Counted from the stretch's first letter, positions 22,003 through 62,131 are shown. The stretch is 64,000 nucleotides of DNA from Patescibacteria group bacterium (GCA_043808365.1 JAZDEZ010000008.1:919-64918), one strand, 5' to 3'. Notes: generated from the sequence alone by a model not told the origin. Numbers and translations are program-made.

Positions 22003-22081
22003 CCCCGAACAAGTTCGGGCATCCTGATTCGCATAAACACCTCAATTTGTCCCTCTTTTGGACGCCTCAACTTGTTGAGGG
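22003..22081. repeat. REP-like palindromes upstream of the RAYT gene
   Basis: CCCCGAACAAGTTCGGGCATCC (22003-22024) and GGACGCCTCAACTTGTTGAGGG (22060-22081). These are the same two palindrome types as on the other side. Confidence 0.7.
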
Positions 22082-22096
22082 AATCTTAAATACCCC

Positions 22097-23071: not shown

Positions 23072-23079
23072 AGGAGTCG

Positions 23080-23173
23080 GTAATTAGTAATCTGTAACTT
23101 GTAATAATTGTTACTGATTACAGGTTACCTGCTTAAATCACTAATTACTATTTACGAATTACTAATTACTTAC
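23080..23173. repeat. Heptamer array: 4 GTAANNN units followed by inverted TTAC units (hairpin-forming)
   Basis: GTAA starts at 23080, 23087, 23094 and 23101. TTAC ends at 23114, 23121 and 23128, then at 23148, 23155, 23162 and 23169. Confidence 0.75.
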
Positions 23174-23195
23174 ATTGTACCCGAAACTCCACAAA

Positions 23196-32698: not shown

Positions 32699-32785
32699 CC
32701 TTGTTCAATGTATAATTGATAATTTCTAATGCATAATTTGTTACTTTGATTATACATTTTGCCTTATAAATTCCCTCCTAATATC

Positions 32786-32835
32786 TAACAACTAATTACT
32801 AATTACCAACTACTAATTACTGATTACTAACTTAC
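32786..32835. repeat. Heptamer array (NNNTTAC), spacer between the giant gene and pilM
   Basis: TAATTAC TAATTAC CAACTAC TAATTAC TGATTAC, with (T/C)TAC ends at 32799, 32806, 32813, 32820 and 32827. It overlaps the stop codon of the giant gene. Confidence 0.7.
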
Positions 32836-41800: not shown

Positions 41801-44291
41801 CAGTGACTGTCCCTCCGGCATTATACTGAATATTGTAATAATGTAGGGAAGACAGCGCTGGCGGCGCGCTCGTGACTGGCGCGGCCAGGGTGTAGCGGTA
41901 GGCCGGCGTACTGGCGCGATAACTGGCGTCGGAAAAACTGCAACCGATATGCGTCTGACATTGGAGGTTGTCCAGCGTGCCGTCGGACATTTTCAGCTTC
42001 ACGACTTTATTGGCATTCACGGCTTCATCGGTGACGACATACAGGTAGCCGATTCCATCCGCACCCGGCTCCAGGGTAACTCCCACGCCGGTATGAAAAT
42101 CCGCTGCACTGCCCAGATATACGCCATTGGTGCCAAACGCGGTGCCGCATTGGGCGGCCGTGCATAATGCTCCAGTGTCAAGGCGGCGCTTTTCCACCCG
42201 CAGGTGGCCGGTTCCGTCGTCACCGACTAAGTAAAAGTACAAGCCGTCCACCGCCATAGCGTAGGGCGTTCCAGACCCTCCGTCGTACAAAGTATATGAA
42301 GACGCACCATTCGTTAAAAGCCTACCAACCGTCCACACGTTTGGATTCGCATGTGTCGCCGCCGTTTTACCAGCCCAATAAATATTACTACTACTGTCAA
42401 GCTTGAGATCAGCAAAATTACTCATATTAGGGTAGGTATTGGAAAATATTGATGTTCCGTTTGCTGTTCTGTCCTTTTTAATTAACATATTATTAGTATC
42501 GCTCCTGACATATCCGGAATATAAATAAGTATTGTCAACTTCAATGGCGTGATTGGTTATAAAAATTAAGCTGCCGAAGAATGAAGATAAATATCCGTCG
42601 CCGTCAAATGCGGTATCAAAAAGACCGTTATCCTGCCTGACCTTCCAGATTATCCTATAGGAACTGTTATTGAAATTGTCATAGCAATAACCCACGGTGT
42701 ATATATTCGTGGCATCCATCGCCAAATCCGTAATTACTCCACCTTTATTAGAACCGCTACAAACAGCCGGGTCGTGAGTCTTATAGCCGTCGCTGTCAAA
42801 AGTAATATCATATTCTCCAGTCGTGGCCGAGCGCTTCTCCAACCTGTAACCTCCGTCTCCTCCATAATAAACCCTGTCGCCGCTGACGCCGGCCGTATAG
42901 CCGGTCATTCCCCACGCGACATATCCGGGCGTGCCGGCACTCGAGCCAAAAGTGGTGTCATAAGCGCCATTTGCGGCCGAGCGCTTCTCCCTATACCACC
43001 CCGTGGGATAAATGTAATTCGCGCCGTAAATAATATCGCGCATACCCTCGTGCGTAGCATCGCTGATAGTATTCAGCCAGCCGTCGCCGTCAAAACTGAG
43101 CCACTGCACGGTGACAATGCGGTAATAATGCTTGGTATTGATGCCTTGATTTTGATGCATAATCTGGCAGGTGCCGCCAGTACCTCCTTTGGAAATTCCT
43201 GTACACTGTTTAAGAATGTTAATGTCCGTTGCGCACATCTCCCAGGTATCATTATCTCCTGTGAGCAAAAAGCATGTGTCAGTCCAACTACCAGTACCAG
43301 TAGTGGAAGTCTGTACCAGCCAGCCGTCCTCGGCAGTGGTCTGGTCGCTGAACTGTAAATATAGTGCCTGCTGGATACCTTCCGGGGGGTTCGGAGTAAC
43401 ATTAGGCGCGATGATGGTGAAATTAGTAGGCTCCGGCAAGTCGATCGTGGGATCAATAACTACAGGATATTTTGCCTGATCCAGCCAGGCTTGCCCCGCT
43501 TTACTGATGACCTTGCTGATTATGTAATCGTCGCCGTCCCGGGTTATCTCGTACCCCAAGCCGTAATTAACCTTGTTTTCGTCATCCTGCTCGTACATGT
43601 GCGGCCTGGGCATGCGCCAGGTTATCCGCTTGGTTTTCTGGTCGTGGAAGGTGATTGAGCCGTCTGCCTGCTCTTTGTAATATACCCCTTCCAGCTTCAT
43701 CTGTTGGCTGAATTTTGCTTGTCCGGTTTTTTTATTCAAAATAATTTTCTCGGCCAAAGCGTCATTAGTGACAGTGTAATCCACGTCCACTCCGTCGTAC
43801 ACGCCGGCGTAAGAAACCGTACTGCCTTTGGCGCTGCTTTTCTTTGACGCTGAATCAATGAAGGACAGGGCAATGCCGCGACCGCCGGCCACCTCGAATT
43901 TGACCGCCCCTTCTTGGCCGGCTTCTGATTTGAAATGCGTTTTATGCACGTTGGCGGTGTTTTCGTATTTAAAATCGCCCGTTGAATTGACCACGGTCGT
44001 GTCGATCGGCTGGTACTTGCCCGCCGCGTCCTGGTACTCCGCGTAGGTATCGTGGTAATCGCCGGTGATGGCGCCGTCCGGCCGGACCTGCTCGTTGGTC
44101 AGGCTGCGGCCGGAAGTGAGCACGTCGATATCCGCTACCGTTTCCGGGTCTACCGGTCTCGCGGGCTGGGCTTGCGGTGTCCCGAACGGCTTAAGGCCTG
44201 TATGAATAACCAGCGTCAGCCCAGCGACCAGCACCGCGGCGGCGGCGAGGATGAAGCAGACTGTTAAGATGTATTTAGTGGATTTGGGCAT
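32832..44291 (-). CDS. Giant surface protein (about 3819 aa): beta-propeller arrays, BNR/Asp-box propeller, Cys-knot modules, C-terminal DNRLRE-like modules
   Basis: Uninterrupted 11.5-kb ORF. The likely start is ATG 44291 (MPKSTKYILTVCFILAAAAVLVAGLTLV, a signal anchor). Contains many W(R/H)IEKR..G.L...FG.DG blades, an Asp-box SADNGATW, blades of the type PH(V/I)VW ... W.GS.W, CxnCxxxDCxnC knots, and three L(R/Q)F....(I/V)PAGAEI..A.L modules. Confidence 0.9.
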   Translation of the reverse strand: MPKSTKYILTVCFILAAAAVLVAGLTLVIHTGLKPFGTPQAQPARPVDPETVADIDVLTSGRSLTNEQVRPDGAITGDYHDTYAEYQDAAGKYQPIDTTVVNSTGDFKYENTANVHKTHFKSEAGQEGAVKFEVAGGRGIALSFIDSASKKSSAKGSTVSYAGVYDGVDVDYTVTNDALAEKIILNKKTGQAKFSQQMKLEGVYYKEQADGSITFHDQKTKRITWRMPRPHMYEQDDENKVNYGLGYEITRDGDDYIISKVISKAGQAWLDQAKYPVVIDPTIDLPEPTNFTIIAPNVTPNPPEGIQQALYLQFSDQTTAEDGWLVQTSTTGTGSWTDTCFLLTGDNDTWEMCATDINILKQCTGISKGGTGGTCQIMHQNQGINTKHYYRIVTVQWLSFDGDGWLNTISDATHEGMRDIIYGANYIYPTGWYREKRSAANGAYDTTFGSSAGTPGYVAWGMTGYTAGVSGDRVYYGGDGGYRLEKRSATTGEYDITFDSDGYKTHDPAVCSGSNKGGVITDLAMDATNIYTVGYCYDNFNNSSYRIIWKVRQDNGLFDTAFDGDGYLSSFFGSLIFITNHAIEVDNTYLYSGYVRSDTNNMLIKKDRTANGTSIFSNTYPNMSNFADLKLDSSSNIYWAGKTAATHANPNVWTVGRLLTNGASSYTLYDGGSGTPYAMAVDGLYFYLVGDDGTGHLRVEKRRLDTGALCTAAQCGTAFGTNGVYLGSAADFHTGVGVTLEPGADGIGYLYVVTDEAVNANKVVKLKMSDGTLDNLQCQTHIGCSFSDASYRASTPAYRYTLAAPVTSAPPALSSLHYYNIQYNAGGTVTVPASNPSATTEYCLGFYSRFSSGEWFAVAGLPGYFYSSDKAVGPEGAVFRGPALAPVRQVSDIGSDTPACMTKAEWDSALATAWPIIGLLPQAVTLSPNLCFDAGLYSQNGDDEGDTNDNYVVAPSATSIICTRARNSKTPIVTPNLTDATKLYVTMDNAGYAKSPTHVNHPATPYALQNTANSQYYNLSTGSFQAGEAWYGYSAGTTPNWGGLTGNTIINLSPNTCYTLRARTKNGNGVYGEGCPENIPPCPSPDDGWSAATGLVCTMAGQPGTVSVNDKSVNVAAGTAGFHIQWDNKNPQSNPNPTTYGITVSINSDFSSPIISAELASGTSGPLICSQGPSGTCEYTGAQSLAINTGYYIRVRAKNSNNIYTNWTCYGGACSGSRAYTLAAPPGTVSIPAANITNRTFYVEWQNNNTTTRLNPAGTNYQIQVSTNSGFTAFAHQSGWIVAGSASLPCYNIGSSTEYCRYTGIGSILLPSTGYYVRVQARNFVDITPTSWTCYMKSGACAMVYTRPNNPSLESLSCNYSGVNSYYCQFNLNTLFNPTNVTYEWQRKCNGTTGCDWTTVSPVPAQSYTNDYLVEDKLLTCDPDHTTYSYHLRAFNPDGLENPGSWRPSIAGSSMTLPPCAVTFPVPNHADQTVAQLSWLWNAPVGGAPVNATNGYEVKTSNNGSTCYSPTPFLPPTCYLADTIRNYLHTGLGVNTQYSATVRAGDATARWGQPATAYAYTSNENVSSISFQNVQTQQLTITSNAFTNLLGNPTSGLAGLWFRENGTGWNSARSTTNSITHSPLTPNTKYCYQGQTKNGDGDATSWLPPTPQCHYTYAATPIAPKLVRQISETSINIIIRPEDPSNPQGIPPAADTEYALCVTKYSPTGSPLWWHYANPVTGSIDHNCSLPKYDTEDVCIDPANGGVWTADKINGVPANGIEICNSASKGGPPPEGDGNKYWYNRVTWGDAAGKTVDLVTAGKYDFKFKARTGSSTDNSSGTDQCSGGVEKADGRCRETAFGSPATLFLVKNNLVGWAWSSQVGWISLNCLNRYNQSDYSCNYAGDWGVNTWFEPSRDINPMEGYAWSASSHALVDVCKNNPSQYCAENSECTTGVGDECLKNQLKKTGLGWISFNAKTCTNNMQKGCATDADCGTGNYCDVISTNIPPNSDPLYGFCYTGSDTSDVKYGRCSDKSTSFCVNGDLSRCNEPTSATCIFETCKNPPGDTCPDQDVDLGVEECRAYTTANFSGTTRGIEGWARLLSQKDSGAALGFTDWGWLKLNGTYDDGQGNTGPYGLTGTEVDSQQFFGDPDVNPNDLKLYSVFGWGWGAAASDYSGNSLWLNPVNISISGAAGHEDWGRGAEKDMVIDSIGDPHVVWSNYERADNNYEIYYLKLKAGKWLTASGVEYRPGAIDPIATGLNVSRTTDRDSRFPSLVLDANDNPYVVWQEGGAGWEGGNGLYFSRWENSGWTSAVPVEGGVAQIPVLKRDPSGGLHVAYRFGNYYGSEIYYKKSADNGATWQTVTGDGNNLNVSNTPAGSAYSVDVAVSDEGIPHITWMESPGHIFYRWWDGIAWVSASGKAGTNVCSNNFTTSCANDGDCEQSCTDDSSKSCILDSQCTPFICGQNRCISKDTSVNWGVLTCDGTPNGTACRSTSDCAGCEGIGIGNAPDDFLGQVPKVAFFGDGRPGIAWRDPTTLMFRQWNGSAWISVNNSEDVDDPDLVIAPREVHLTHDLFIDEDDRPHLVWDYSPLGGNTATDIYYSAWNGANWVTANKSTPVNTGDETRAPSTDDFNVSQTSAVKSWSPVFGFDRWGNPHVVWGEINFNNTGCSFGNGGVVDKPTRAVATETVLDESGQYLYIVGKDETEIESIWYPNWRIEKRRADSGELCTDSACGTGFGYRYDSSATTYTEDGVVRYTYNNVSDTATDIALDPSGDYLYVGGFTIGNNGSNIYIQKRLTATGAYDANFGGGGNILIENTGGESGTNNKNVSLAVDLSYLYVFGSNNDNSWHIEKRYSDDGSLVTSFGAGGVVNSNGGYTAQWITIDAEFMYLVGGNAGGRWRIEKRRLSNGSLVSGFDTDGIIDGSGSYESERAFQAILHGNYLYVVGNTKDLSNNEDFLVAKYDRVTGQPVDTFDGDVNGNGFIQIVDFPDSRSKKAFTIAADDNFIYFAGWVGYSLGNSRWRYERLNHNGVRQPDDMTSGGWQNGIIFEDGNNGHGAVDGRIDGIVVDNTYMYAVGSHNFGPTTWRIEKRYKDSGVLVTPQHSNCVDSKYPSCMFNYWKGELGANVYYCAASDVEYSKWMPGVAQSGLGWVEFMPAGALLGIPWVQTMFADIHASQGIALAPPPRGTGDYTSTYIIESGDAISGIPGYYGGTTTGLPTSQLPTQPGFSPLIQNQPSIQTLGAELLAKLDVDGLVNKTNGDKNRHGTVVVESTDTELSASLGNPILNNKVYYFHGTPGQTFTIGSDMYFMKGSASAIPATKGNGVIVVDGNLEINANVYYDKRCSNNNNQVCHQNGDCGTGNTCDDPLISNLIELPSAAIIVRGNIYINSLAGQVSAVVAAIDNPATATLTEGIISTGRKAPSSLSVSAGNDDTEVVSGSYVNAPVAASAKFGKDAGNVVSRDYLRFALASIPAGAEIKSAYLKLQSDGSSNGDFNARVYLLDYDNATDASIDFITTPNSTLYNANTSNSVNFPIEGNWTAGTWYQTPDLKAIVQRFVNRDNYTQVNYIGLSIREGDAEVGDLRGFRTFESGSAPQLVIEYAPRRSTSNAANGSIVTDTTMETALNDMTFGWNGTKPQRAYLQFPVNVPANAEILKAQVHTTMCNAGTAAFQIRQGVLQNYPSVIDSNPYAFPISLDVSELAQDVAVNALGSGQVALNDISGIITAFISRSDYLPGVASHSEFDLRLRRGSDSVEGVVGPGENRCIQKTATSLSIDYQIPLSVSGLFVAGTGYNFDRKYTKNLAPSERILYDGRVVANTPPGLSDFITALPIYHRVTP

Positions 44292-44369
44292 AGGAAATTT
44301 AAAGGGAGGACAAGGGTAACATGGGATGCAAGGGGGAGCAGGGGACTTCAAGGGTAGATACTGGTGCTA
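44292..44369. repeat. Array of about 9-nt NNNCAAGGG units (left arm of four-helix-bundle cassette 1)
   Basis: TTTAAAGGG AGGACAAGGG TAACATGGG ATGCAAGGG GGAGCAGGG GACTTCAAGGG. It contains the IR half GGGGAGCAGGGGACTTCAAGGG (44333-44354). Confidence 0.75.
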
Positions 44370-44789
44370 TTAAGGCTTTTTAATTTTGCTGGCTCCGCTA
44401 TTAAAATTATTCATACGTTTTTTAGTTTCTAATGATTTTACTAACTTTGAGAATAAATAATCAGTTTTACCGCATAGGGCGTCTAATTTTCTAAATTCCA
44501 CCTCGGTAATCAATTGGTCTTCGAAGCAATCTTCTATATCACCCTGCAATTCGGAAAGTGACGGCTGGCAAATATTTTTCAGGGCGTTGATGTACTGGCC
44601 AAGGGTCTGGCGGTACCCTTCCTGAATATTCTGCTTTACCGAGCGGGCGGCGCTGTTCATCTGGCTGACACGCCTGATTTCAGATTTTGGAAAACGCCTC
44701 GACATTTCATAGACCGCGCTTCTTAACTGGCTGGCGTTCCGCCAAACAATTAGATCTTTATACCCCTGCTTGTATTTTTTATCCAACAT
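44370..44789 (-). CDS. Four-helix-bundle protein (23S rRNA intervening-sequence protein / Avd family)
   Basis: 139 aa. YKDLIVWRNASQLRSAVYEMSRRFPKSEIRRVSQMNSAARSVKQNIQEGY matches the F.DL.VWQ.A..L...IY.....FPK.E.. L..Q..RAA.S...NIAEG pattern of TIGR02436/PF05635. Confidence 0.8.
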   Translation of the reverse strand: MLDKKYKQGYKDLIVWRNASQLRSAVYEMSRRFPKSEIRRVSQMNSAARSVKQNIQEGYRQTLGQYINALKNICQPSLSELQGDIEDCFEDQLITEVEFRKLDALCGKTDYLFSKLVKSLETKKRMNNFNSGASKIKKP

Positions 44790-44805
44790 ATTTCAATCGT
44801 GTAAT

Positions 44806-44925
44806 TATCCCCCTTGAAACCCCTGATTTCCCTTGGACCCCCCTAATCTCCCTTGAAATTACCCTGAATCTCCCCTTGCCTTCCCTTGAAACCCCCTGCT
44901 CCCCTGTGGAACCCCTGAATCTTTA
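44806..44925. repeat. Array of about 10-nt CCCTTGA/CCCCTGA units (right arm of cassette 1, inverted relative to the left arm)
   Basis: AACCCCTGA TTTCCCTTGG ACCCCCCTAA TCTCCCTTGA AATTACCCTGA ATCTCCCCTTG CCTTCCCTTGA AACCCCCTGC... IR half CCCTTGAAACCCCCTGCTCCCC (44883-44904) matches 20/22 with the reverse complement of 44333-44354. Confidence 0.75.
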
Positions 44926-44930
44926 CGTGC

Positions 44931-47162
44931 TTACAACTCATTGCAAATTATTTCGGTAATCTGGGAATTGGCGTCGAGGGTAAGGCCCGTCATAAATTTG
45001 CCGCCGATGGTGGCGCAGTTGGCCACGCCGCTGGAAACCGGAACCACCTCGTCACTGCCGCCCCACTGGTTATTTTCCGCCTGAACGTCACTGCCAACGG
45101 TAAGATTATTTCCCACCATGCCCGCGCCTGACACGTTGACATGGCCGGGCTGGGGGGTAATGTTGCACGACCCATATATTTCACAATCACTGTTATTCTT
45201 ACAGACGCGGGTTGGCCGTCCGGAACAGAATCCCAGCCGGTCAAGATTCACAACCGTATTTAGATCCGTATGCCCCTGGCCCGAACCGGAATAAAATTTC
45301 TGCAGATTAAGTGGCCTGGTTTCGTCGCATCCAGTACTGTTGCAAGTGTTTAACGTCCATAAATATGTCCCGTCAAAAAGCAGTCTAGCGCCAGACCAGT
45401 CTGACCATAAACGAGTAGGATACCCCTTAATTTCACCATTAGCGGCAGTGATCCGATATACCGAATTACCGATACCAGGTTCTCCCAGCCCAGCCAGCCA
45501 GACATAAGTGCCATCAAAGGCCAGGTCTGACGCCTCAAGCTTTGAACTAAGCGCTAATGGCATAAATTGGCTGTCAGACACGCGGAATTTGGCCACTTTC
45601 CCTTCTGTCCCTATATAGCTGGAAATAACCCAGATATGGGCGCCGTCAAAGATCAGCCGCCCGGGCGCGGATAGTCCAGTCGCGTAGCGCCCTACAACGG
45701 CGCCGGTATCCGGATCGATTTTTATTAAATTTTCCGGATTTTGCTGGCAACCTGGGCCACTGACGCAAATTTGGATAGTCGCGGGTCGTGTCGCGCCCTG
45801 CGTGACATTGGGCAATAAAGTCCAGATATAGCCATCGGCAAAAATAATTCCCTCCGGCCTGACGCGCCAGCCGGCGCTGTTCAAACGGTTCAGGTCAACG
45901 CCAGCGCCGTTTGTTCCCACGGGATAAATGCCGACCCGATTGCAGTCAGAATCGATTTTTGTTATGTCGCCGCCATCAGGACTGACCGTCCAAATAAACA
46001 CCTTGCCATCATCATCCACGCTGGTGGCAATTTCACGGGGAATAACCCCAAAATTGACCGTACCGCAGTGCTCCGTCACTGATCCATCTTGGGGATCAAA
46101 CTTTGTCAATGTAGCGTCATAATTCGACAGCCACAAATACCGGCCGTCAAACGTGATATTAGTACCTTCTGTGTTGGGCAAATTATACGTACCTATTACC
46201 TCGCCGTCAGACGCCCGAATTTTCCACAACTCATTGCCATCGTCATCGCTAAATTTATTCATAACCCAAATATTTGAACCGTCGAATGCCATATCTGGAA
46301 ACAAAAAACTATTTGATCCGGCTGCCGCTGACGCCGGATATTCCCCTATTTTCTGCCCGGCCGCAAACGGCACTAATGATCTTTGCAATTGCGTCGGCAG
46401 AAATATGCCGGCCGCCACGTCCGCCCCGGCGCCGAAAAACCCTTTGAAATACCCGGCCAGGCCGCTGCCCGTATTCTGACCATAGACGGCCGCGTCGGTA
46501 AGCGCTCCTGTTTCGACATAGATGCCTTTACCGCCCGTGCTGACTCCCTTTAGGCCGTTCCCGTTTACACTCTGGCCGCTGACCGCCTGACTGCTGTTGC
46601 CGGTATAGAGGCCATAGACACCCGTTCCGCCCATTGAAGCCGCGGTCAGGCCGGCGCCTTTTGAGCTGTATCCGCTGACCGCCCGGCCATTGATCGGGGC
46701 CGCGCCACTGCCGATCCGCGCCATTCCACCCTCTACTATCAGCGCCGTGTCCGGCGTCTGGAATTTCGTACCGATGCCCACCCAGCCTTCGGTGGAATTC
46801 GCGTAGAGGACGTCGTCATCGACGGCCAGCACGTCGTTATAAACATATGGCGTGGAAAAAATGGCGCCATCACCTCGGACATCCAATGGCTTCAGGGGAG
46901 GATCCGCGGAGAACGAACTGGACTGCGTCAGGTCATACGTCGGTAAAATTTCAAGCGACCCGGCCTTAGCCTGGTTCTCGGGACCCGTCGTCAGCGGAGC
47001 GTCAAAAGTCTCCGTCGGCGGCGCTGATGACGGCTCCAACCACTCGGCTTGGGCCACGCGCGCCCCGCCCTGGGCAATTCCAACACACGCCAGAATCCCC
47101 AGGATGAAAAATGTCCCGAGGTTTTTCCTGAATATATTTTTTTTGATATTTAATCTCTTCAT
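44931..47162 (-). CDS. Secreted beta-propeller repeat protein, paralog 1 (743 aa)
   Basis: Signal peptide MKRLNIKKNIFRKNLGTFFILGILACVGIAQG, then AEWLEPSSAPP... The body carries FDG(T/S/R/A)(Y/N/H)(L/I/V)W blades. The C-terminus is C..G.F..G...(n)..ITEIICNEL. Confidence 0.85.
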   Translation of the reverse strand: MKRLNIKKNIFRKNLGTFFILGILACVGIAQGGARVAQAEWLEPSSAPPTETFDAPLTTGPENQAKAGSLEILPTYDLTQSSSFSADPPLKPLDVRGDGAIFSTPYVYNDVLAVDDDVLYANSTEGWVGIGTKFQTPDTALIVEGGMARIGSGAAPINGRAVSGYSSKGAGLTAASMGGTGVYGLYTGNSSQAVSGQSVNGNGLKGVSTGGKGIYVETGALTDAAVYGQNTGSGLAGYFKGFFGAGADVAAGIFLPTQLQRSLVPFAAGQKIGEYPASAAAGSNSFLFPDMAFDGSNIWVMNKFSDDDGNELWKIRASDGEVIGTYNLPNTEGTNITFDGRYLWLSNYDATLTKFDPQDGSVTEHCGTVNFGVIPREIATSVDDDGKVFIWTVSPDGGDITKIDSDCNRVGIYPVGTNGAGVDLNRLNSAGWRVRPEGIIFADGYIWTLLPNVTQGATRPATIQICVSGPGCQQNPENLIKIDPDTGAVVGRYATGLSAPGRLIFDGAHIWVISSYIGTEGKVAKFRVSDSQFMPLALSSKLEASDLAFDGTYVWLAGLGEPGIGNSVYRITAANGEIKGYPTRLWSDWSGARLLFDGTYLWTLNTCNSTGCDETRPLNLQKFYSGSGQGHTDLNTVVNLDRLGFCSGRPTRVCKNNSDCEIYGSCNITPQPGHVNVSGAGMVGNNLTVGSDVQAENNQWGGSDEVVPVSSGVANCATIGGKFMTGLTLDANSQITEIICNEL

Positions 47163-47173
47163 TTACTTTCCGC

Positions 47174-47271
47174 GGATTACTTGTTACCCGTTACTAATTA
47201 CGAATTACTATTTACTAATTACTTATTACCTTTTATCTATTATTTATTATCTATTACTTATTACCTTCTAC
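47174..47271. repeat. Heptamer array, 14 NNNTTAC units in unbroken register
   Basis: TTAC/TTAT/CTAC ends at 47180, 47187 ... 47271 (every 7 nt). It fills the spacer between the stop of the 1677-aa gene and the start of the 743-aa gene. Confidence 0.85.
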
Positions 47272-50200: not shown

Positions 50201-52309
50201 TGTTTCTCGGTAGAATGAAATAGTATCTTCACGGTCATATATGCCTCCCCAGCCGCCGTCGTAGAGTCCTTCGACAGTTTCGCTCGCTGGATTGAACTTG
50301 ACCAGCCGTCTATTGCCCTGAGGGAATTCACGGAAAGCGCTGTAGGCGAGCCAAATTTTATTATTGACATCATCAAACGTCGCATCGCTCGGGCCGGTCG
50401 CCGGGCCGCTGCAAAATACCTTCTGGCTTGCCGGCTGGCTCGGATCGCTTGCCAGCACTCTGGTGAACCCTTCTCCGACATTGGAATTGCCGCCGCCGTA
50501 ATAGCTCGTCCAGACGTAGGTGCCGTCAAAGGTTATACCAGTCGCATCACCGACCACGCCGCTGGATACGCGCTCATCGTTATCCGGAGTACCGGCGGGC
50601 GATGTCAAAATATTGGCGCATTGGGTGTCGGGTCCGCGCCATGTGCCGGCAGAACAGCTTACCGCCGGAGTGCAGGTGGCTGAAGTAGCGCAACGGGCGT
50701 CGCTGCACGCCGTACCGTTCCAGGTGCCGCCGCAGGTAGCGGGATTGGCAGTACAACTGCCCGCCACCCAGCGGGAATCGCACTGACCAGCTCCTGTTCC
50801 GGTGCACGATGCCTGATCACCGCAGGATCGGTCAACGCAAACTCCAGGAGTCCAGGTGCCGCCAACGCCCGCGCAGGTTGCTTCTGATTCGGCAAGGACA
50901 CACCAGCCGATGGTATCAATAGAATTGTCAGTATCGGTGTCAAGACGGTCGGTGCAGGAGCCGAGGTTCATCGTCCAGCAGGAGTTGCCGGTGCCGTTCA
51001 CTCCGGTTACCAAGTTTTTAATCGATGCTTGGCTGCTGATCTGATAGGCCAGCAATCCGGTGCCATCCGTTTTTATCCGCGACTGAACATCGTTTCCGTT
51101 ATTTCGCTTACTGATTGTCCAGAAATACGGGCCGCCGGGTGTCACGTTATCGTAGGTCATGTCAATCGGCCCACCGACAGCGGTAGCATCGGTATCAACG
51201 GAGTAGTACGCTACCGCCTGGTACGTCGCCGGGTCAAACTTTACCAGGCTTGGGTCGCCATCGTGATCGGTCAGCGCCCAAACAAAGCCTTCATGAAAAA
51301 ATAGTTTATTGATTCCGTGATCAACGGGGAGCAACACTGGCCTCGCCACCACCGCCATGGTATCGGGATCCACTACGTACATTCTCGGCTCCCAATCGTA
51401 AGTGCCGAACCAGAGGTTAACACCGTCAAACGTGATGGCAGAGCCCCCGATCAGCTCGCTGTCTTCGGCAGTCCCCATGGGCCACCCGGCAGTGTACGGT
51501 ACCCGGGATTGCTGTAATCGGTTGGGAATAAATTTTCCAGCTGCCAGCGCCCCGCTGCCGTACAGCCGCTGCTGGAAATAGCCGGCCCACGCGCCCATGC
51601 CGTTCGCCTCGCCATAGACGGCGGCAATGACATTTGACGGGTTATACGGGGAATTGATAATGCCAACCACGGCGGATGCCTGATTACTGTATGCGTAGAT
51701 GCCGGAACCATTCACTGAGTTCAATCCATACACACCCGGGCCAGTCACGGAAGCGCCGCTGACAGCGGGCTGGTTGCCGGTTGAGTTGCCCGTAGCCGCT
51801 GTATTAGCATCAGCTGTATTCACTGAAATTGCTGATCCTGTCGTGATCGGCGTCGTTGCTGATCCGGCATTGGCACTGCCACTTACCACGTCCAAAATCA
51901 CCGCGGCGCTTGGCGATGCCGTGCCGATCCCGACATTATCATTTGCGCCGCTGACATTGAGCGTATCCGTATCGACAGCCAGATTTCCCGGGTCAACCAG
52001 ATTGAACGTATTGATGTACACGTCTTTCGTCCCGCGCACGTCAAGCGGATAATTCGTCGTCGGCGTATCGCCAAACGGGTTATAAAGCGGGTCGAGGATC
52101 AGGTGGCCTTTCTTGGCCTGGTCTCCCGGGCCGGCGGTCAATGGCGCGTAGATATTTCCGGCCGGCGCCTGGGCTGACGGCTCTTCCCAAGCCGCCTGGA
52201 CAAACTTCGCGGTGCCAACCAGAACCCCCAAGCACACAAAAAATCCCAGGACAAAAAACATTGCCCGGTTTTTCCTGAATATATTTTTTTTGATATTTAA
52301 TCTCTTCAT
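47276..52309 (-). CDS. Secreted beta-propeller / Cys-rich surface protein, paralog 2 (1677 aa)
   Basis: Its first 15 codons and 5' leader are nearly identical to paralog 1. It has FDG.Y.W blades, a Cys-rich region, and a C-terminal W(R/H)(I/T/A)EKR propeller of the same type as in the giant protein. It ends ...LKCRGL like paralog 3. Confidence 0.9.
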   Translation of the reverse strand: MKRLNIKKNIFRKNRAMFFVLGFFVCLGVLVGTAKFVQAAWEEPSAQAPAGNIYAPLTAGPGDQAKKGHLILDPLYNPFGDTPTTNYPLDVRGTKDVYINTFNLVDPGNLAVDTDTLNVSGANDNVGIGTASPSAAVILDVVSGSANAGSATTPITTGSAISVNTADANTAATGNSTGNQPAVSGASVTGPGVYGLNSVNGSGIYAYSNQASAVVGIINSPYNPSNVIAAVYGEANGMGAWAGYFQQRLYGSGALAAGKFIPNRLQQSRVPYTAGWPMGTAEDSELIGGSAITFDGVNLWFGTYDWEPRMYVVDPDTMAVVARPVLLPVDHGINKLFFHEGFVWALTDHDGDPSLVKFDPATYQAVAYYSVDTDATAVGGPIDMTYDNVTPGGPYFWTISKRNNGNDVQSRIKTDGTGLLAYQISSQASIKNLVTGVNGTGNSCWTMNLGSCTDRLDTDTDNSIDTIGWCVLAESEATCAGVGGTWTPGVCVDRSCGDQASCTGTGAGQCDSRWVAGSCTANPATCGGTWNGTACSDARCATSATCTPAVSCSAGTWRGPDTQCANILTSPAGTPDNDERVSSGVVGDATGITFDGTYVWTSYYGGGNSNVGEGFTRVLASDPSQPASQKVFCSGPATGPSDATFDDVNNKIWLAYSAFREFPQGNRRLVKFNPASETVEGLYDGGWGGIYDREDTISFYRETPGGPSVWVGSKGFLEKFDTDGVEQNHYGEGPWDRTLYDFTYDPRDPSNPIIWQGFGRIGSVGKRTMEAPYVDTTVPILGAGYDDFIFDGTYLWGTASASTYLSKYRASDGKKISDYDMGFDVGYITFDGASLWLPHAHDFKMWFRQVDPKTGLTVDEYELAGLGEKYVYDLSYDGAYLWASLEQDSNYLLRIDLSSCSPGSHVCTSYTRYTLGGYIGVNERPHLLAQASGSIWASLNNSRKVVNVRQDGAFLSRLSIAEMSTQSPGGGARPIRSIMYDGTYLWVGSYFADADGNSIYKIDPYGGDSTHAGVCSNNTTLVCNTPADCGGNDCNAVVAAKYSIFKDGDTANVTTLTFDGTYVWATHVGYHDISPAVGQCSDHLDNDGNSLCDFDGGIGNPGCSGKPDPGCSSALDTSEETSSENNRYLTRIAAATDQIVESVTLGTKYDTRAAIFDGNSLWITSYGLAWYEGYSLKQYYVGSGRGAADLAGSVQLRDASQWSVDSQPGSFSADGSAAFGAKLTVVGDLVVANNAWAGAADDDRNTGQSCQDGQYVKGIDLTSRAVSFGTSGYIREDGMNGSTLGWGIAVDESSVYLAGNSDTDINTRWRAEKRDIWSGTLDTGFDGDGIITGAAANGGSNAGWDVAIDDTYLYTVGQTPLDVWHIEKRAKTNGSQAWALNAAGGKAARAIAIDSQYMYVTGQSSSNTWRTEKRLLGTGDLCTAAVCGTAFDGDGYVESSALTSSAHDIDIDDASMYVFGFDENLQWRIEKRLLTDGSLDSGFGSSGVITETTATVDDNTTYVGGISVDSDYLYVAGMDNANWHIRKYDKDNGSLCTGGACSAGNFGDSGSGAITVVTNIADGVNSIAIDDDYMYLIGYRSMNDDGWYMEKRRLDTGALCTAGNCGIGFGDSGSGSIAIYSNANPNDVQYGRDIAIDDTYIYTFGNLDGFAGWRIEKRNLANGALDNVPATLKCRGL

Positions 52310-52320
52310 CTACTTTCCGC

Positions 52321-52453
52321 GGATTACTTATTACCCGTTACTGATTACTAATTACGAATTACTTATTATTTATTATTTATTACTTATTACCTATTATTTA
52401 TTACTTATTACATTGTTCATGGTTCTAAGTTCAAAGTTCATGGTTCATAGTTC
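52321..52453. repeat. Heptamer array, 19 units: 13 NNNTTA(C/T) then 6 NNNGTTC in the same register
   Basis: Units end at 52327, 52334 ... 52411 (TTAC/TTAT) and at 52418, 52425 ... 52453 (GTTC) with no phase break. Confidence 0.85.
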
Positions 52454-52464
52454 TAACCTGCCCC

Positions 52465-55008
52465 TTACAGCCCCCGGCATTCTATCTTGGTAACGCGGCC
52501 GCTTCCATCCATAACGACATTCTTTATATAATGCCCGGCCGGGCACCTTTTCGTTCCGGCCCCGAGACCCGCTGGATTGACGATGACATCGCCCGATCCC
52601 GCGGTCGGCCAGGCATTGCTGGCCGCGATCAAATCACTGCCCGCGGTCATGGCACTGCCGATCCGTCCGGATCCTGCTATGTTAAAGCTCCCTGACTGCG
52701 CGGTGAGCGGAGTGTTGTTCTGGAGCGTCAGCGTCCGGCTCATGTCGGTATGGCCATAGCCCGTGCCGGAAAAAATCTTGGTAATGCCGGTCGGCCCGAA
52801 AACGTACAAGTACGTGCCGTCAAAAGCGATACCGGTCGGCTCGAAACCAAGGGCAAAATCCGACCGGTCAGCAGGCAGGGCGGCATTAAGACGGGTAATG
52901 TTCGAGTCACCAGCATTTACGATCCATAAATAAGTTCCGTCAAAAGCCATATCCGTCGGAGTGCCTCCAGTGCCAAAACCCGCGTAGCCATTATCAGACA
53001 TTGGCACGGGCGGCGCGAAACACCCGCCCAGCCCCAGGCTCGAACAAGAGGCGTCATCTGTACAGGGTGCGTTGTTTCCCTCGGAATCTTTTATCGAACA
53101 GACGCGGTTCTGGCTCAAATAAAACCGCTTGGCCGTATTGCTGGACGCATCCAATATCCAATAATAGTAATTATCATAAAAAATGTCAGTGGAATCGCCC
53201 GTCACTAGGCCGGTAAAAAACATCGCCTTACCAGAAGACGGATTAATGTTGTACAGATTGCTTTCATCCGGCGCCAGCACCCACAGGTAGCTGCCGTTAT
53301 AAATTATTTTCGTAAAAGTTCCCTCCGCGTCAGTGAGATGGACCGCGGATCCGACTATCCCGCAGGCACTGTTCAGTTTGACCACTTCCCCTCCGGCACT
53401 GCCGCTGGTCGCCACCCAGTAGTACGTGCCGTCAAAGGCGATACTGACTGGGTCTGTGATGTCCAGCGAACACTCGCCCGGTCCGGTTCCCTGCCCCGGA
53501 TCGTATGGATTCATTTTTTTCACCCGATCCCCGCTAGACAGGACCATCCAGATATACTGCCCATCGTATAACATATCAGACACGTCACTGCTGACATCCA
53601 GCTCAAAAATTTTAAAGCCGTCCGCCGCCCTGATCTTGAAAATTTTCGACTCGTACGCGGCCCACAGGTACGTCCCGTCAAAAAAACGGAAATACATCTT
53701 CCCCACATTGTACGTATCCACGGCCTGGCCAGCGGTAAACGGCACCAATGAAGCCTGCGGCGCCGTCCGGACTAATTTTGCGCCGGACACGTCGCCGCTC
53801 CCCTCCACCTGGCCGTCAAAATACCCCGCCCACAGCCCGTAGGGATTGGCATTAATCGCGTAGATGCCGTATCCGGTCTGGCTGTAGCCGTAGACTGAAC
53901 TCAAATAACCCGGGATCATTTGCGATCCAATTGATCGCGGAGTACCGCCCATACTGACAGTCACCCACGCCCTGACATAATACATATTTGACGAGCCATT
54001 GACTGAATTTTGCACCCAGTCCGTCGGCAGTGACGTCCAGATGGTAACCTTTGTGACTATTGGATCCGTGTTCTTGAAACTGTATGGCCCGGACACCGGA
54101 TCGACTTTAAGCCACGCCGTGCAATTGCCGGCGTTTACCGCCGTACAGTACTCCCACCAGACCTCCCCAACGGAATTATAATTCGTCACGTCCAGCGCAA
54201 TACTGTTAAATGGATTCGTTCTCCCGAAATACATCGCGTCACCTACTGCGCTGAGAAACCCGTTACTTTGGTCAGCGCCATAATAAATATCATTCCTGGC
54301 ACTGTTGGCCGCGGCGGCTGTCACGTTCGTATATGTCGTGGTATTGTCATTGTACAGGAGCACTTTATCAAAAACATCCTGGCCTGACTGCCCCTGTGCC
54401 GCGATTCCGGATTGGTTTTCTGCCCGCACGCCATAGCCATCATCACTCGCGGAAGTCCCCTGGACACCCGGGTCGGTGCTGGGATATACCGATGAGCCGT
54501 ACAAGGCCTCCGCGCTGCTGCTGGTCGCTGACAGCGCGTCAGCGTTTGGCGCATTGATGCTCCAGGTGCCTCCGCTAACTTCAAGCTTGCTGCCCGAAAT
54601 GCCGAGACAAGGTCCGACACAGACCTTGTTGTTGGCGGCATCGACAAATAGTGTTCCCGGGTATGCGCTTGATGCCGTACCGACTTTCAGGTTTTGCTCC
54701 AGTACAGCCTCAGTTGATTGCGCGCCTTCACCCAGAACTTCCAGCTGGTAATTGAACGGGTTGGCCACGTTACCAGACCCAAGCCGCAAACTCCCGGATT
54801 TCGCCTGCGTTGACCCGTCAATCAGCAAATATCCGCTGGCATTCTGGTCAGGCGGCGCGGCGATCGGGCCGCTCGGCGCCGCTTTCACTTGAGCATGCCA
54901 AACTAAGGAGGCAAGGATTATGCAAGAACAAAAAAATAGGCCAAAAAAAGCCCATTTTGCCCGGAAATTATTATTTTTCGTGATGTATTTCACGCCCCTC
55001 GACATCAC
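52465..55008 (-). CDS. Secreted beta-propeller repeat protein, paralog 3 (847 aa)
   Basis: Signal anchor ...WAFFGLFFCSCIILASLVWHAQVKA, then APSGPIAAPPDQNASG.. The body carries FDGTY(L/Y)W blades. The C-terminus is CPAGHYIKNVVMDGSGRVTKIECRGL. Confidence 0.85.
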   Translation of the reverse strand: MMSRGVKYITKNNNFRAKWAFFGLFFCSCIILASLVWHAQVKAAPSGPIAAPPDQNASGYLLIDGSTQAKSGSLRLGSGNVANPFNYQLEVLGEGAQSTEAVLEQNLKVGTASSAYPGTLFVDAANNKVCVGPCLGISGSKLEVSGGTWSINAPNADALSATSSSAEALYGSSVYPSTDPGVQGTSASDDGYGVRAENQSGIAAQGQSGQDVFDKVLLYNDNTTTYTNVTAAAANSARNDIYYGADQSNGFLSAVGDAMYFGRTNPFNSIALDVTNYNSVGEVWWEYCTAVNAGNCTAWLKVDPVSGPYSFKNTDPIVTKVTIWTSLPTDWVQNSVNGSSNMYYVRAWVTVSMGGTPRSIGSQMIPGYLSSVYGYSQTGYGIYAINANPYGLWAGYFDGQVEGSGDVSGAKLVRTAPQASLVPFTAGQAVDTYNVGKMYFRFFDGTYLWAAYESKIFKIRAADGFKIFELDVSSDVSDMLYDGQYIWMVLSSGDRVKKMNPYDPGQGTGPGECSLDITDPVSIAFDGTYYWVATSGSAGGEVVKLNSACGIVGSAVHLTDAEGTFTKIIYNGSYLWVLAPDESNLYNINPSSGKAMFFTGLVTGDSTDIFYDNYYYWILDASSNTAKRFYLSQNRVCSIKDSEGNNAPCTDDASCSSLGLGGCFAPPVPMSDNGYAGFGTGGTPTDMAFDGTYLWIVNAGDSNITRLNAALPADRSDFALGFEPTGIAFDGTYLYVFGPTGITKIFSGTGYGHTDMSRTLTLQNNTPLTAQSGSFNIAGSGRIGSAMTAGSDLIAASNAWPTAGSGDVIVNPAGLGAGTKRCPAGHYIKNVVMDGSGRVTKIECRGL

Positions 55009-55087: not shown

Positions 55088-55141
55088 CACATTGAGAAAA
55101 ATATTTTTTATTAGCCCAATTGTAACACATTTTTACCCGAA

Positions 55142-55633
55142 ATGTCAAGTGAAATTAAAATGAAATATTTACCCTTCAATAAGAGCCAAAAGACCGTCCT
55201 GCTTGGCGCGGGAATAATCTTTGTCGTGGTAATCGGCATCGCTTTAGTGAGCTTCTACTATGGGAAGCATCAGGGCACCAAAAGCCTGGCGGCCGTACCC
55301 GGCATCAATGTCGCTCCGGCCGGATATCAAAAAGTCCTGGGAGTCCAAACCGCCAGCTGGCAGGGAAAAATTACCAAGGCGTCAGGAAATGTTATTACCT
55401 TCACTATTACTGACCAGGACAACAAATCAAGAAGACTATCCGCGCGCGTGACGGATGGCACCCAATTACTCCGCGCTGATTTGACAAAAGCTCCATCCGC
55501 TAGCCGGTCTCCGGCCGCGCTCTCGGACTTCACGATCGGCTCGACAATCTACGTTCAGGGCCCGGCTGCTGACGCCAGCCAGTCCGAATTCGACGCCATC
55601 GCGATAACCCTGCTGATCATCCCAAAAACATAA
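55142..55633 (+). CDS. Membrane-anchored hypothetical protein
   Basis: 163 aa. N-terminal TM VLLGAGIIFVVVIGIALVSFYY followed by a small beta-rich ectodomain. Confidence 0.6.
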   Translation: MSSEIKMKYLPFNKSQKTVLLGAGIIFVVVIGIALVSFYYGKHQGTKSLAAVPGINVAPAGYQKVLGVQTASWQGKITKASGNVITFTITDQDNKSRRLSARVTDGTQLLRADLTKAPSASRSPAALSDFTIGSTIYVQGPAADASQSEFDAIAITLLIIPKT

Positions 55634-56231: not shown

Positions 56232-56237
56232 TTAGAC

Positions 56238-56265
56238 TAAGAACTTTGAACCGAAAACACTGAAC
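56238..56265. repeat. NNNGAAC heptamers (left arm of four-helix-bundle cassette 2)
   Basis: TAAGAAC TTTGAAC CGAAAAC ACTGAAC (ends at 56244, 56251, 56258 and 56265), followed by the hairpin CTGAAC-tggaatatc-GTTCAG. Confidence 0.7.
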
Positions 56266-56296
56266 TGGAATATCGTTCAGATTATATTTGATACTT

Positions 56297-56653
56297 ATGT
56301 TATTCAGATTCAGACAATTTCCTGTTTACAAGGATTCCAGAAAATTCCGAAATGACATATACGCTTTAACGAAAAAATTTCCTAAAGAAGAGCTATTCAG
56401 TTTAACTTCGCAAATCAGACGCGCGACAAACTCCATCTTATTGAACATTGCTGAAGGATCAAACCGACTGTCCGATAATGACTTTGGACGCTTTTTAAAT
56501 ACAGCATTGACTTCACTTGAAGAAGCAGTCGCCTGTATGGATATTGCGCTCGATGAAAAATATATTAGCCTACAAGATCACGAAAAACACCTTGCATTAG
56601 CAGAAAACCTTGGCAAGCAATTACTCGGTTTCAGCAAAAAACTTCGAAAGTAA
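56297..56653 (+). CDS. Four-helix-bundle protein (23S rRNA intervening-sequence protein / Avd family)
   Basis: FPVYKDSRKFRNDIYALTKKFPKEELFSLTSQIRRATNSILLNIAEGSNR is a close match to the TIGR02436 pattern. The ATG at 56297 is preferred over the TTG at 56288. Confidence 0.85.
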   Translation: MLFRFRQFPVYKDSRKFRNDIYALTKKFPKEELFSLTSQIRRATNSILLNIAEGSNRLSDNDFGRFLNTALTSLEEAVACMDIALDEKYISLQDHEKHLALAENLGKQLLGFSKKLRK

Positions 56654-56663
56654 GCTAAATTTA

Positions 56664-56753
56664 TAGGTTCCAAGTTCCTAGACAAAGTTGATTGTTCAAG
56701 GTTCTAAGTTCCTAGTCCCAAGTTCATTGTTCCCAGTTCATAGTCCTGAGTTC
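56664..56753. repeat. 13 NNNGTTC heptamers (right arm of cassette 2, inverted relative to the left arm)
   Basis: TAGGTTC CAAGTTC CTAGAC AAAGTTG ATTGTTC AAGGTTC TAAGTTC CTAGTCC CAAGTTC ATTGTTC CCAGTTC ATAGTCC TGAGTTC. The track ORF 56688-57668 wrongly translates this array as an HtpX N-terminal extension. Confidence 0.8.
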
Positions 56754-56765
56754 AACGTAAATCCC

Positions 56766-57668
56766 ATGCCCACCATCTACACGCATATCAATGCCAACAA
56801 ACGCCGGCCATGGATCCTGATGGGAATATGCGCAATATTCCTATTTGGCATCGGATTTTTTCTCGATCAGGCGTACGGCCATGGATCCTGGGGCTGGACC
56901 ATAGTCGCCCTGATATACGCTGTAATCAGCGCTTTAATCGGCTATTTCAAGGGTGATAAGATTGCCCTGTGGACATCCGGGGCCGTCCCAGTGACCAAGG
57001 AACAAAACGCCTATGTCGTCCGCATGGCCGAGAATCTGGCCATCACCACCGGCTTGCCGGCGCCGAAAGTCTACATCATCCCTGATGAGGACATTAACGC
57101 GTTTGCGACCGGACGCGACCCGCAACACGCCTCCATCGCCGTCACCCAGGGGGCGATTGACAAGCTGGCCAACGAGGAGCTGGAAGGCGTCATGGCGCAT
57201 GAAATTTCGCATATCGGAAATTATGATATCCGCTACATGACTCTGGTGATAGTTTTGGTTGGGACGATTATCGTTTTATCTGACATGTTCTGGCGGGTTC
57301 GCTTCGGACGTTCATTTGGCCGAAGCAGTGGCCGGAGCGGCGGCGGCGCCGCCATCATGGTGCTTGGACTCGTTCTCCTGATACTCGCTCCGTTGTTCGC
57401 TGAATTGATAAAACTGGCCGTCTCCCGCAAACGCGAATACCTGGCGGACGCTTCCGGCGCATTACTCACGCGGTACCCGGAAGGGCTGGCCCGCGCTCTG
57501 GAAAAAATACGCGACCAGGGAGCGCGGATTGAGCGGGCGACGAAATCTACGGCGCACCTGTACATCGCCAACCCAATGGGCTCGGGATTCTCAAAATTTT
57601 TTTCCACCCATCCGCCGATTGACGACCGGATCAGCCGACTGCGCCAGATGGGAAATATAACGCAATAA
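56766..57668 (+). CDS. htpX: Membrane zinc metalloprotease HtpX (M48 family)
   Basis: HEISHIGNYD (HExxH), 4 TM segments, and C-terminal STHPPIDDRI. The start is reset to ATG 56766 (MPTIYTHINANKRR). Confidence 0.9.
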   Translation: MPTIYTHINANKRRPWILMGICAIFLFGIGFFLDQAYGHGSWGWTIVALIYAVISALIGYFKGDKIALWTSGAVPVTKEQNAYVVRMAENLAITTGLPAPKVYIIPDEDINAFATGRDPQHASIAVTQGAIDKLANEELEGVMAHEISHIGNYDIRYMTLVIVLVGTIIVLSDMFWRVRFGRSFGRSSGRSGGGAAIMVLGLVLLILAPLFAELIKLAVSRKREYLADASGALLTRYPEGLARALEKIRDQGARIERATKSTAHLYIANPMGSGFSKFFSTHPPIDDRISRLRQMGNITQ

Positions 57669-57672: not shown

Positions 57673-57810
57673 ATGGATAATAAAAAAGACATCATTACCG
57701 AGGTACAGACTGGCACCGCCACTTCGACAAAAATTACTCTCGGGATTTCTATTGCCGCGGGAATTATTACCGCCGCCGCCATCATCTTGGCGCTGACGAA
57801 CATCAAATGA
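57673..57810 (+). CDS. Possible 45-aa tail-anchored membrane peptide (below the track cutoff)
   Basis: MDNKKDIITEVQTGTATSTKITLGISIAAGIITAAAIILALTNIK. It starts 5 nt after the htpX stop. No clear SD. Confidence 0.3.
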   Translation: MDNKKDIITEVQTGTATSTKITLGISIAAGIITAAAIILALTNIK

Positions 57811-57997
57811 ACTACCTCGCAGCAAGCTGACGAGGTATCGTCAGCCAAGAGATATGTTCATTCTCCGTAGCTAGCTATCCTCCTTCGCTTGCGCTTCGGA
57901 GGATTCTCCTCATTTGTTTCCCCGCAGTCCAGCCTTCGTAGCCGAAGCTACTTCGGCGGAGCAGGCCAAGCTGCGGAGTATTAATGCGGAGGAGAAT
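57807..57997 (+). repeat. Dispersed GC-rich hairpin repeat, long copy
   Basis: ATGAACTACCTCGCAGCAAGCTGACGAGGTATCGTCAGC...GTTCATTCTCCGTAGCT ... CAGTCCAGCCTTCGTAGC ... GCGGAGGAGAAT. It matches 62132-62245 but carries two extra internal hairpins. Confidence 0.75.
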
Positions 57998-62119: not shown

Positions 62120-62131
62120 CAAACTGCTACA

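Follow-up and report, generated by a model that had tools for sequence, protein, structure and literature searches.

The 133-nt tandem array at 52321-52453 is probably a degenerate heptanucleotide SSR in which two unit families have expanded within an ancestral spacer of ~10 nt between two giant surface-protein genes of an operon. It is part of the repeat population that also forms the hairpin arms around S23p/Avd-like four-helix-bundle genes, rather than a conserved regulatory signal of this operon. The window, by which we mean the whole 64,000-nt stretch analysed, belongs to a genome assembled from a metagenome (MAG), which NCBI lists as 'Patescibacteria group bacterium', in agreement with the CPR host that the initial annotation had supposed. 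What is new is the Patescibacteria host and the unusually degenerate, two-core form of an already described repeat class; a protein landing pad, one of the functions proposed for the array at the outset, is kept here as a minority hypothesis.

The array is assigned to the minus strand and consists of two sub-arrays. Positions 52321..52411 hold 13 heptads that read NNNTTA(C/T) on the plus strand and (GUAAUNN)13 in the mRNA, with UAA in all 13, while positions 52412..52453 hold six heptads that read NNNGTTC on the plus strand and (GAACNNN)6 in the mRNA, in register with the 13-unit part. The first seven of the 13 units, whose ends run from 52327 to 52411, are GGATTAC, TTATTAC, CCGTTAC, TGATTAC, TAATTAC, GAATTAC and TTATTAT, and the last six are TTATTAT, TTATTAC, TTATTAC, CTATTAT, TTATTAC and TTATTAC; about nine end in C and about four in T. 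They are followed after 52411 without a gap by ATTGTTC, ATGGTTC, TAAGTTC, AAAGTTC, ATGGTTC and ATAGTTC, the last ending at 52453. Consecutive unit ends are exactly 7 nt apart, with no phase slip in 19 units, and at most two identical units stand in a row. The mRNA of the array is C-poor and contains UAA in every GUAAU unit, so that there are stop codons in all three frames; it has no G-quadruplex potential. In-register reading and lag analysis agree with the coordinates, unit counts, phase and intercistronic position first given for the array. The four-base core then assigned to both unit types holds for GAAC, kept in 6/6 units, but not for GUAA, of which UAA is the invariant part: the 26 pooled GUAAU-type units of this array and of its sister at 47.2 kb have the composition G20/A6, U26, A26, A26, U21/C3/A2, N, N, so that UAA is kept in 26/26 and the remaining positions vary. 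The units of the array have a core of 3-5 nt in common and differ elsewhere; most of the TTAC arrays listed from other genomes are more uniform.

Self-identity of the array reaches 0.76, 0.69 and 0.74 at lags 7, 14 and 21, whereas the values for the remaining lags lie within 0.15-0.43, a profile that leaves no period beyond 7. Over the whole window, 42-nt segments with at least 28 self-matches number 186 at lag 7 and 157 at lag 14, and 0-2 at the other lags from 3 to 15. The pattern TTAYNNN repeated five times has 18 matches in the 64-kb window against 0.00 expected from 100 dinucleotide shuffles, and GTTCNNN repeated four times with one mismatch has 11 against 0.01 expected by chance. Both sub-arrays are called by Tandem Repeats Finder.

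Folded alone, the array is less stable than its own shuffles (z = +1.0), and folded with 150-nt flanks it remains an open loop with no significant structure relative to shuffles. Pairing between the GAAC part and the GUAAU part is negligible (duplex -8.4 kcal/mol), and pattern scans found no AUUAC- or GUUC-type partner array on the array's own transcript. An RNA processing or stability element between the cistrons, another of the proposed functions, is not supported for an array that is less structured than shuffles and has no complementary partner. Positions 52321-52453 are a solo array, and the unit types of the window are found both solo and as hairpin arms. The dismissal of several known element types in the initial annotation (CRISPR, REP, coding sequence, terminator, known riboswitch) is upheld by unit size, folding, scans and Rfam. 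Units of 7 nt with 2-3 free bases are not the 24-48 nt repeats with unique spacers of a CRISPR, there is neither the palindromic unit nor the stable stem-loop of a REP/BIME element or intrinsic terminator, and no Rfam covariance model (riboswitch, leader, sRNA) matches the array. It is also not an S23p/IVS-type cassette, as it holds no gene and no complementary arm. In the whole window Rfam reported only tRNAs at gathering score, and at E <= 1 nothing relevant around the array; the best weak match there, Giardia U6 (E = 0.27), lies at 52221-52294, at the start of the 1677-aa gene and outside the array. PADLOC models of anti-phage defence had no matches among the small neighbouring proteins.

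On the minus strand the genes follow in the order 847-aa, 1677-aa, 743-aa, four-helix-bundle gene, giant gene (32832-44291, true start ATG 44291) and pilM, and then comes the type IV pilus cluster. The 847-, 1677- and 743-aa proteins are paralogues with signal-peptide-like N-termini and a common C-terminal ending of CRGL type, and none of them has a Pfam match. The stop codon of the 847-aa gene (52465-52467) is separated from the array by a minus-strand linker of 11 nt (52454..52464), as originally described, while the minus-strand linker on the other side (52310..52320), given as about 12 nt, also measures 11. This second linker is purine-rich and carries an RBS-like GGAAAG before the ATG of the 1677-aa gene (52307-52309), and the mRNA of the junction reads (GAACNNN)6(GUAAUNN)13, then GCGGAAAGUAG, then AUG. 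The best sigma-70-like promoter (55119..55148, minus strand; TTGACA-18-TACAAT with TG) lies upstream of the 847-aa gene. Promoter and terminator scans found no such site in or near the arrays, nor between that promoter and the arrays, which are therefore most likely transcribed inside a polycistronic mRNA.

The 5' regions of the 743-aa and 1677-aa genes are ~97% identical over the first 42 coding bases, the purine-rich linker before them and the final three heptads of the array, while the two proteins are 37% identical overall, a disparity that indicates a probably recent gene conversion at the 5' ends. The near-identical stretch (47120-47210 and 52265-52355) is ~85 nt long and reaches through the first 14 codons. 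Farther upstream the 47.2- and 52.3-kb arrays are alike only as any two arrays of that consensus would be, and an ungapped alignment of the two 13-unit arrays was discarded as evidence of homology or of constraint on length, ~74% identity being expected from the consensus alone.

Lag-7 arrays occur at six sites of the window, every one in a spacer. The sister array (47174..47264, minus strand), with 13 GUAAU-type heptads, fills the spacer between the 1677-aa and 743-aa genes. A shorter array of ~7 GUAAUNN-type heptads (32785..32835, minus strand) runs from the stop codon of the giant gene and lies upstream of pilM, and at 23072..23175 (minus strand), between a pilin and a glycosyltransferase gene, a GUAAU-type and an AUUAC-type array form the arms of a hairpin, the RNA of this spacer folding strongly (z = -5.75). 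Right after the 32.8-kb array, at 32735-32790, stand a strong AGGAGGG motif and then an ATG. This ATG lies ~60 nt before the pilM start, in a different frame, and may belong to a small upstream ORF. In each of the three paired elements the longer arm is the one that is pyrimidine-rich on the plus strand, and the four solo arrays are likewise pyrimidine-rich there (7/7); because this pattern covers two cassettes transcribed in opposite directions it hints at a replication-strand bias of the arrays within the window. A general rule of this kind was rejected, as 105 loci of other phyla among the matches listed show no strand preference (56 vs 49).

Other repeats of the window were recorded beside these arrays. 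The target site of IS608-like elements is TTAC. The array core was considered as a landing site of such an element and this was rejected, since the arrays contain no ends of such an element, the local hairpins lack TTAC and there are other cores as well. Hairpins of the GGACGCCTCAACTTGTTGAGG type stand on both sides of an IS200-like Y1 transposase gene (21461-22045; region 21306-22096), as is typical of REP sequences and the tyrosine transposase that goes with them. A repeat of ~65-90 nt (GAACTACCTCGCAG.AAGCTGACGAGGTATCGTCAGC...TTCATTCTCCGTAGCT), present at 57790-57880 and 62130-62225, downstream of the M48 peptidase operon and of clpB, includes a hairpin; it may represent a small mobile element or one associated with a terminator. 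Both sides of tRNA-Pro (3245-3628 and 3703-4000) are occupied by GC-rich, hairpin-rich gaps of 300-380 nt without ORFs, where Rfam at E <= 1 gave nothing but a weak molybdenum-riboswitch-like match (E = 0.09).

Relatives bear on the age of the array. At three syntenic Patescibacteria loci the genes stand in the same order as in the window (ClpB, M48, LemA, then big1-big2-big3-giant). The junction equivalent to that of the 847-aa and 1677-aa genes measures 14, 10 and 9 nt at these loci and the next junction 7-17 nt, and no lag-7 arrays were found in ~23 kb of each. In two further relatives the same junction is 77 nt with a REP-like hairpin and 94 nt of plain AT-rich sequence, so that the array is missing at the orthologous junction in five relatives, all of them distant (37-50% protein identity). 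Short junctions without arrays argue for a lineage-specific expansion and not for a conserved operon signal, and on this comparison of sequences the 133-nt array is best taken as a recent, lineage-specific expansion of a presumptive ancestral spacer of ~10 nt. Look-ups of the exact 847-aa and 1677-aa products for strain variants found none on record, a metagenome scan for the conserved junction CCGCGGAAAGTARATGAAGAGATT gave 0 matches, and no relative closer than these was found. The hairpin in the big1-to-big2 spacer of one relative (L140, 4223-4299) is very like the GGACGCCTCAACTTGTTGAGG type of the window, and a Y1 transposase gene is present in that relative too.

Heptad arrays of this kind are spread over several phyla. 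When one genome per species was searched for runs of six TTAC cores in phase, at least 120 stretches emerged, mostly from Cyanobacteria, Bacteroidota and Chloroflexota, a few from Verrucomicrobiota and Planctomycetota, with three CPR genomes among the matches listed. Among these matches 126/135 TTAC arrays are intergenic on a crude ORF map, 119/128 (93%) have no inverted partner array, and many switch unit type in register (e.g., L024, L025, L097, L114). Their orientation relative to neighbouring stop and start codons was discarded as unreliable, because GTAA units create stops that bias mechanical ORF ends.

The initial annotation implied that a heptad core with free bases was without precedent, which does not agree with the literature: published work describes (GGGANTN)n repeats, TAACTGA repeats and an over-representation of 7-nt SSRs (PMC4692102; PMC4679880). 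For this over-representation in bacteria polymerase slippage has been proposed (Mrazek 2007, as cited in PMC4679880 and PMC4692102). The GGGNATC repeats of Xanthomonas and Nostoc are perfect or heterogeneous, as (GGGANTN)n, and often form convergent inverted pairs; close species share the positions of these repeats while the lengths differ, and no part in regulation has been found for them (PMC4692102). The array resembles these, other long SSRs and the cyanobacterial STRR heptamers in its head-to-tail 7-nt units and its intergenic position, sometimes within an operon; units of this class can be heterogeneous with a conserved core, and its arrays stand solo or in convergent inverted pairs and vary in length between relatives. 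The array differs in its Patescibacteria host, in its UAA/GUAAU and GAAC cores, two core families standing in one register, in the lack of G-quadruplex potential and in units that are more degenerate than those of most described arrays. The 19 unslipped units, their recurrence in spacers of the window and their absence in relatives are the marks of intergenic heptameric SSRs, and the array therefore belongs to this known class (STRR, long SSRs, (GGGANTN)n, TAACTGA).

Some published heptamers lie close to start codons. TAACTGA repeats of marine Beggiatoaceae, Cyanobacteria and Bacteroidetes are, like the array, heptamers before start codons with a stop triplet on the sense strand; they adjoin the start codons in Beggiatoaceae, and a translation role via an RNA-binding protein has been proposed (PMC4679880). 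Unlike the array they repeat one heptamer near-perfectly, in 2-6 copies (rarely up to 43), and overlap the RBS (PMC4679880), whereas the array has 19 degenerate units and a separate purine-rich site between array and ATG. In Nostoc, heptamer repeats located near starts influence expression modestly (bioRxiv 10.1101/2022.06.06.494920). The tandem AT-rich TTTTGAT heptads of Vibrio cholerae ctxAB are another likeness, and their number affects expression via regulator binding to DNA upstream of the promoter (bioRxiv 10.1101/2021.05.14.444153); the array, unlike them, lies inside a transcription unit with no promoter-like site nearby.

The proposed history of the array begins with two cistrons ~10 nt apart. 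Units of 7 nt would have been gained and lost in register, by replication slippage or unequal recombination, until the array filled the room between the upstream stop codon and the downstream RBS. The two cistrons would now be separated by a C-poor, unfolded stretch rich in stops, the downstream gene would need its own translation initiation site, and the length of the spacer may tune downstream expression. In-register gain and loss of units is the most likely origin because the local tandem duplicates inside the array (GTAATAA, GTAATAA, ATAATAA, ATAATAA) are both a substrate and a signature of slippage, and because the arrays in several spacers of the window speak of a repeat population and not of a single site. 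Against this account stands the fact that imperfect units slow slippage. The cores are moreover too well kept for neutral decay (UAA 26/26, GAAC 6/6), and invariant cores beside varying positions point to selection on the core or to a factor that regenerates, templates or binds it. The in-register junction of the two cores, which arrays of independent origin would show one time in seven, carries little weight alone. The strong link between heptad arrays and four-helix-bundle genes is a further sign that a specific factor may be involved.

PF05635 is the family of the 23S rRNA intervening-sequence protein (S23p), which is related to Avd of diversity-generating retroelements. The window holds two such genes, both in the loop of a stem built by periodic flanks. 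Cassette 2 (56232..56769, plus strand), in the spacer of the LemA and M48 peptidase genes, consists of a GAAC-heptad 5' arm (56238-56270), a PF05635 gene (~56297-56653; E = 4e-31) and a GTTC-heptad 3' arm (56665-56760), with an arm duplex at z = -2.9; the recurrence in these arms of the GTTC unit of the array, seen from the start, was recovered by pattern scan. Cassette 1 (44292..44930, minus strand), between the 743-aa and the giant gene, consists of a G-rich 5' arm (44790-44930), a PF05635 gene (44370-44789; E = 7e-16) and a C-rich 3' arm (44292-44369), with an arm duplex at z = -4.2. Its 5' arm carries about nine G3-6 tracts with a period of ~11 nt on the transcribed strand. G-quadruplexes are conceivable there in addition to the pairing with the C-rich 3' arm.

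In other Patescibacteria, orthologues of the cassette 2 gene (70-85% identity) occupy the equivalent spacer of the LemA and M48 peptidase genes, and all have flanking heptad arms whose cores are GAAC/GTTC or AGCT/AGCC; the GAAC arm core is kept in 3/4 orthologous cassettes, with host proteins diverged to ~37% identity. The GAAC units of the array, and the opening sequence TTAGAAC that follows the stop codon, are similar to the 5' arms of cassette 2 and these orthologues, which supports a putative family relation of the GAAC sub-array to the cassette arms. The relation to four-helix-bundle cassettes suggested earlier thus gains support from the unit type and from the general association with heptad arms; its stronger form, the footprint of an excised cassette, is a conjecture. 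Similar elements were seen in other contexts. In a candidate division WOR-1 genome 14 units of the AAGAACNN/GTTCTTNN kind run up to the ATG of a four-helix-bundle gene. A Parcubacteria conjugation-like operon with PrgI-like, TraC-like and TraG-like genes has two spacers (L132, 2410-2520 and 3220-3335) that are gene-less hairpins of (AAGAACNN)n and (GTTCTTNN)n, GAAC and GTTC arrays with a period of ~8. In a syntenic relative without the four-helix-bundle gene the LemA-M48 spacer (L121, 5465-5687) is a gene-less hairpin with heptad-like arms (GGTTATT GGTTGTT ... CTAATAACC), which is either a relic or a precursor of a cassette.

The association is general. The loci that bear on it beyond the window are L124-L131, L132-L139 and L142-L217, and the sample used for statistics comprised 63 metagenome loci of PF05635-type genes with 38-64% identity. 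In this sample the flanks are complementary at z < -3 in 32/63 loci, against 3/63 mismatched controls. The best lag among 5-11 is 7 in 42 upstream and 42 downstream flanks (84/126), and 8 in 8-9 flanks on each side, while only 2/25 flanks of other genes in the same metagenome loci have 7 as their best lag. Strong lag-7 arrays are 38-fold denser at up to 130 nt from the four-helix-bundle gene than elsewhere in the loci. The heptad cores vary by locus (ATCGC, CTACAGT, GGAAGTC, CCATCAG, GACTGTC, TTGACAA and others). In the reverse direction a four-helix-bundle gene lies within ~4 kb in only 1/120 TTAC-array loci of other phyla among the matches listed, so that arrays greatly outnumber these genes. 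S23p/Avd-like genes are thus generally found inside hairpins with heptad-array arms, a new result, as the literature search found no paper that states such a general association. The same design is seen in the classical 23S rRNA intervening sequence of Coxiella, where the loop of a 28-bp stem, which RNase III cuts, holds the S23p gene, and this gene is directly preceded by two or three GACAGAT heptamers, their number differing between strains (PMC4990558). The two cassettes of the window are like the Coxiella and Leptospira intervening sequences in having a PF05635 gene in the loop of a stem of complementary flanks (PMC4990558), and unlike them in standing between protein-coding cistrons and not in rRNA, whereas the solo array differs from these sequences in having no gene inside and no complementary arm. 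Of the two readings of the association, one has the four-helix-bundle genes settle or be kept in array hairpins, and the other has the proteins that they encode act in trans on arrays.

The alternative that survives best, although we hold it unlikely, is that an oligomeric protein reads one core per 7-nt unit on the mRNA or DNA and so controls translation of the downstream giant gene. The model is TRAP, which binds arrays of (G/U)AG triplets with a period of 5-6 nt in Bacillus trp leader RNAs. The array is like a TRAP site in its short fixed core, free spacer bases and regular spacing in single-stranded RNA near a translation start; it is unlike one in its period of 7 nt, in having only a candidate protein and in the lack of conservation in orthologous operons. 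An invariant core with variable filler in strict phase, in an unstructured array 11 nt from the start codon, speaks for such a landing pad, and so do the heptad flanks of four-helix-bundle genes (84/126 vs 2/25, and the 38-fold density) and the persistence of the GAAC arm core in three of four orthologous cassettes. The most attractive candidate ligand is the window-encoded, presumably toroidal pentameric S23p/Avd-like four-helix-bundle protein, a circumstantial candidate for the TRAP-like role: Xanthomonas S23p is a homopentameric toroid (PMC4990558), and the entry of the closest solved relative, 2GSC, holds five chains. On the other side, the orthologous operons lack the array, unrelated cores (GUAAU, GAAC, G-tracts) occur in one genome and the core differs among loci of the family, the reverse association with TTAC loci is as rare as given above, and binding data for the four-helix-bundle family come from members in diversity-generating retroelements only.

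It is a doubtful proposition, too, that the array is a phase-variable contingency locus in which the number of units switches or grades the downstream surface protein, as with (ATCTTTC)n of hmw1A. In Haemophilus influenzae the (ATCTTTC)n of the hmw genes pairs with a G-rich segment to form a hairpin that is cut by RNase III; the repeat is phase-variable, and more repeats in the hmw1A 5' UTR lower expression (PMC12721329). This was the only such transcribed heptameric SSR with an experimentally worked-out mechanism found in the literature. The array is comparable to the hmw1A/hmw2A repeat (PMC12721329) in that both are transcribed, have 7-nt units and precede the gene of a large surface protein, and it stands directly before genes of very large, fast-evolving, signal-peptide-bearing proteins in a pilus/surface region. 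It is unlike the hmw repeat in its imperfect units, with no more than two identical in a row, and in lacking the partner for the RNase III hairpin that the hmw mechanism requires, as it stays unpaired; pilM and glycosyltransferase genes are also preceded by arrays.

We give as little credence to the idea that the array is a remnant of one or two inverted-array hairpins or cassettes that lost the partner arm and the gene and whose surviving arm expanded. Its GAAC units and TTAGAAC opening would then be explained by descent from an arm like that of cassette 2, the GUAAU and AUUAC arrays at 23.1 kb do make a true hairpin, gene-less GAAC/GTTC hairpins fill spacers of the Parcubacteria operon, and the pyrimidine-rich plus strand is common to the longer arms of the three paired elements and the four solo arrays. 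Yet there is no trace of a partner arm or gene at the junction, solo arrays are the norm elsewhere (119/128 among the matches listed), and the strand pattern is no rule in the 105 other-phyla loci among the matches listed. An assembly or sequencing artefact, which the initial annotation had named as a possible refutation, is very improbable: the source is a MAG and low-complexity sequence is prone to mis-assembly, but the distinct units make the 133 nt unambiguous, the 47.2-kb array has proximal units and flanks in common with it, and similar arrays stand in hundreds of independent assemblies, isolate genomes included.

As an SSR grown in a short spacer, the array adds Patescibacteria to the phyla with intergenic heptameric repeats; its ancestral state, a ~10-nt spacer, is at hand, which makes it a clean example. 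It also carries a warning for annotation, as in CPR genomes a long spacer inside an operon may have come from repeat expansion and need not be a regulatory RNA. The data join two long-open questions, why bacteria favour 7-nt repeats and what role S23p/Avd-like proteins have outside retroelements, and the association of four-helix-bundle genes with heptads is the more interesting result, as it makes the landing-pad idea testable. A speculative extension, to which we attach a low probability, is that heptad arrays are ligands or products of S23p/Avd-like pentamers with one 7-nt unit per subunit, the genes lying in hairpins of their own heptads and solo arrays being trans-acting sites. If so, the genes in their own hairpins would serve autoregulation or processing, solo arrays such as 52321-52453 would let an S23p-like protein set the translation of giant surface-protein genes, the S23p family would gain a function outside retroelements, and the over-representation of 7-nt SSRs in phyla rich in S23p-like genes would be explained.
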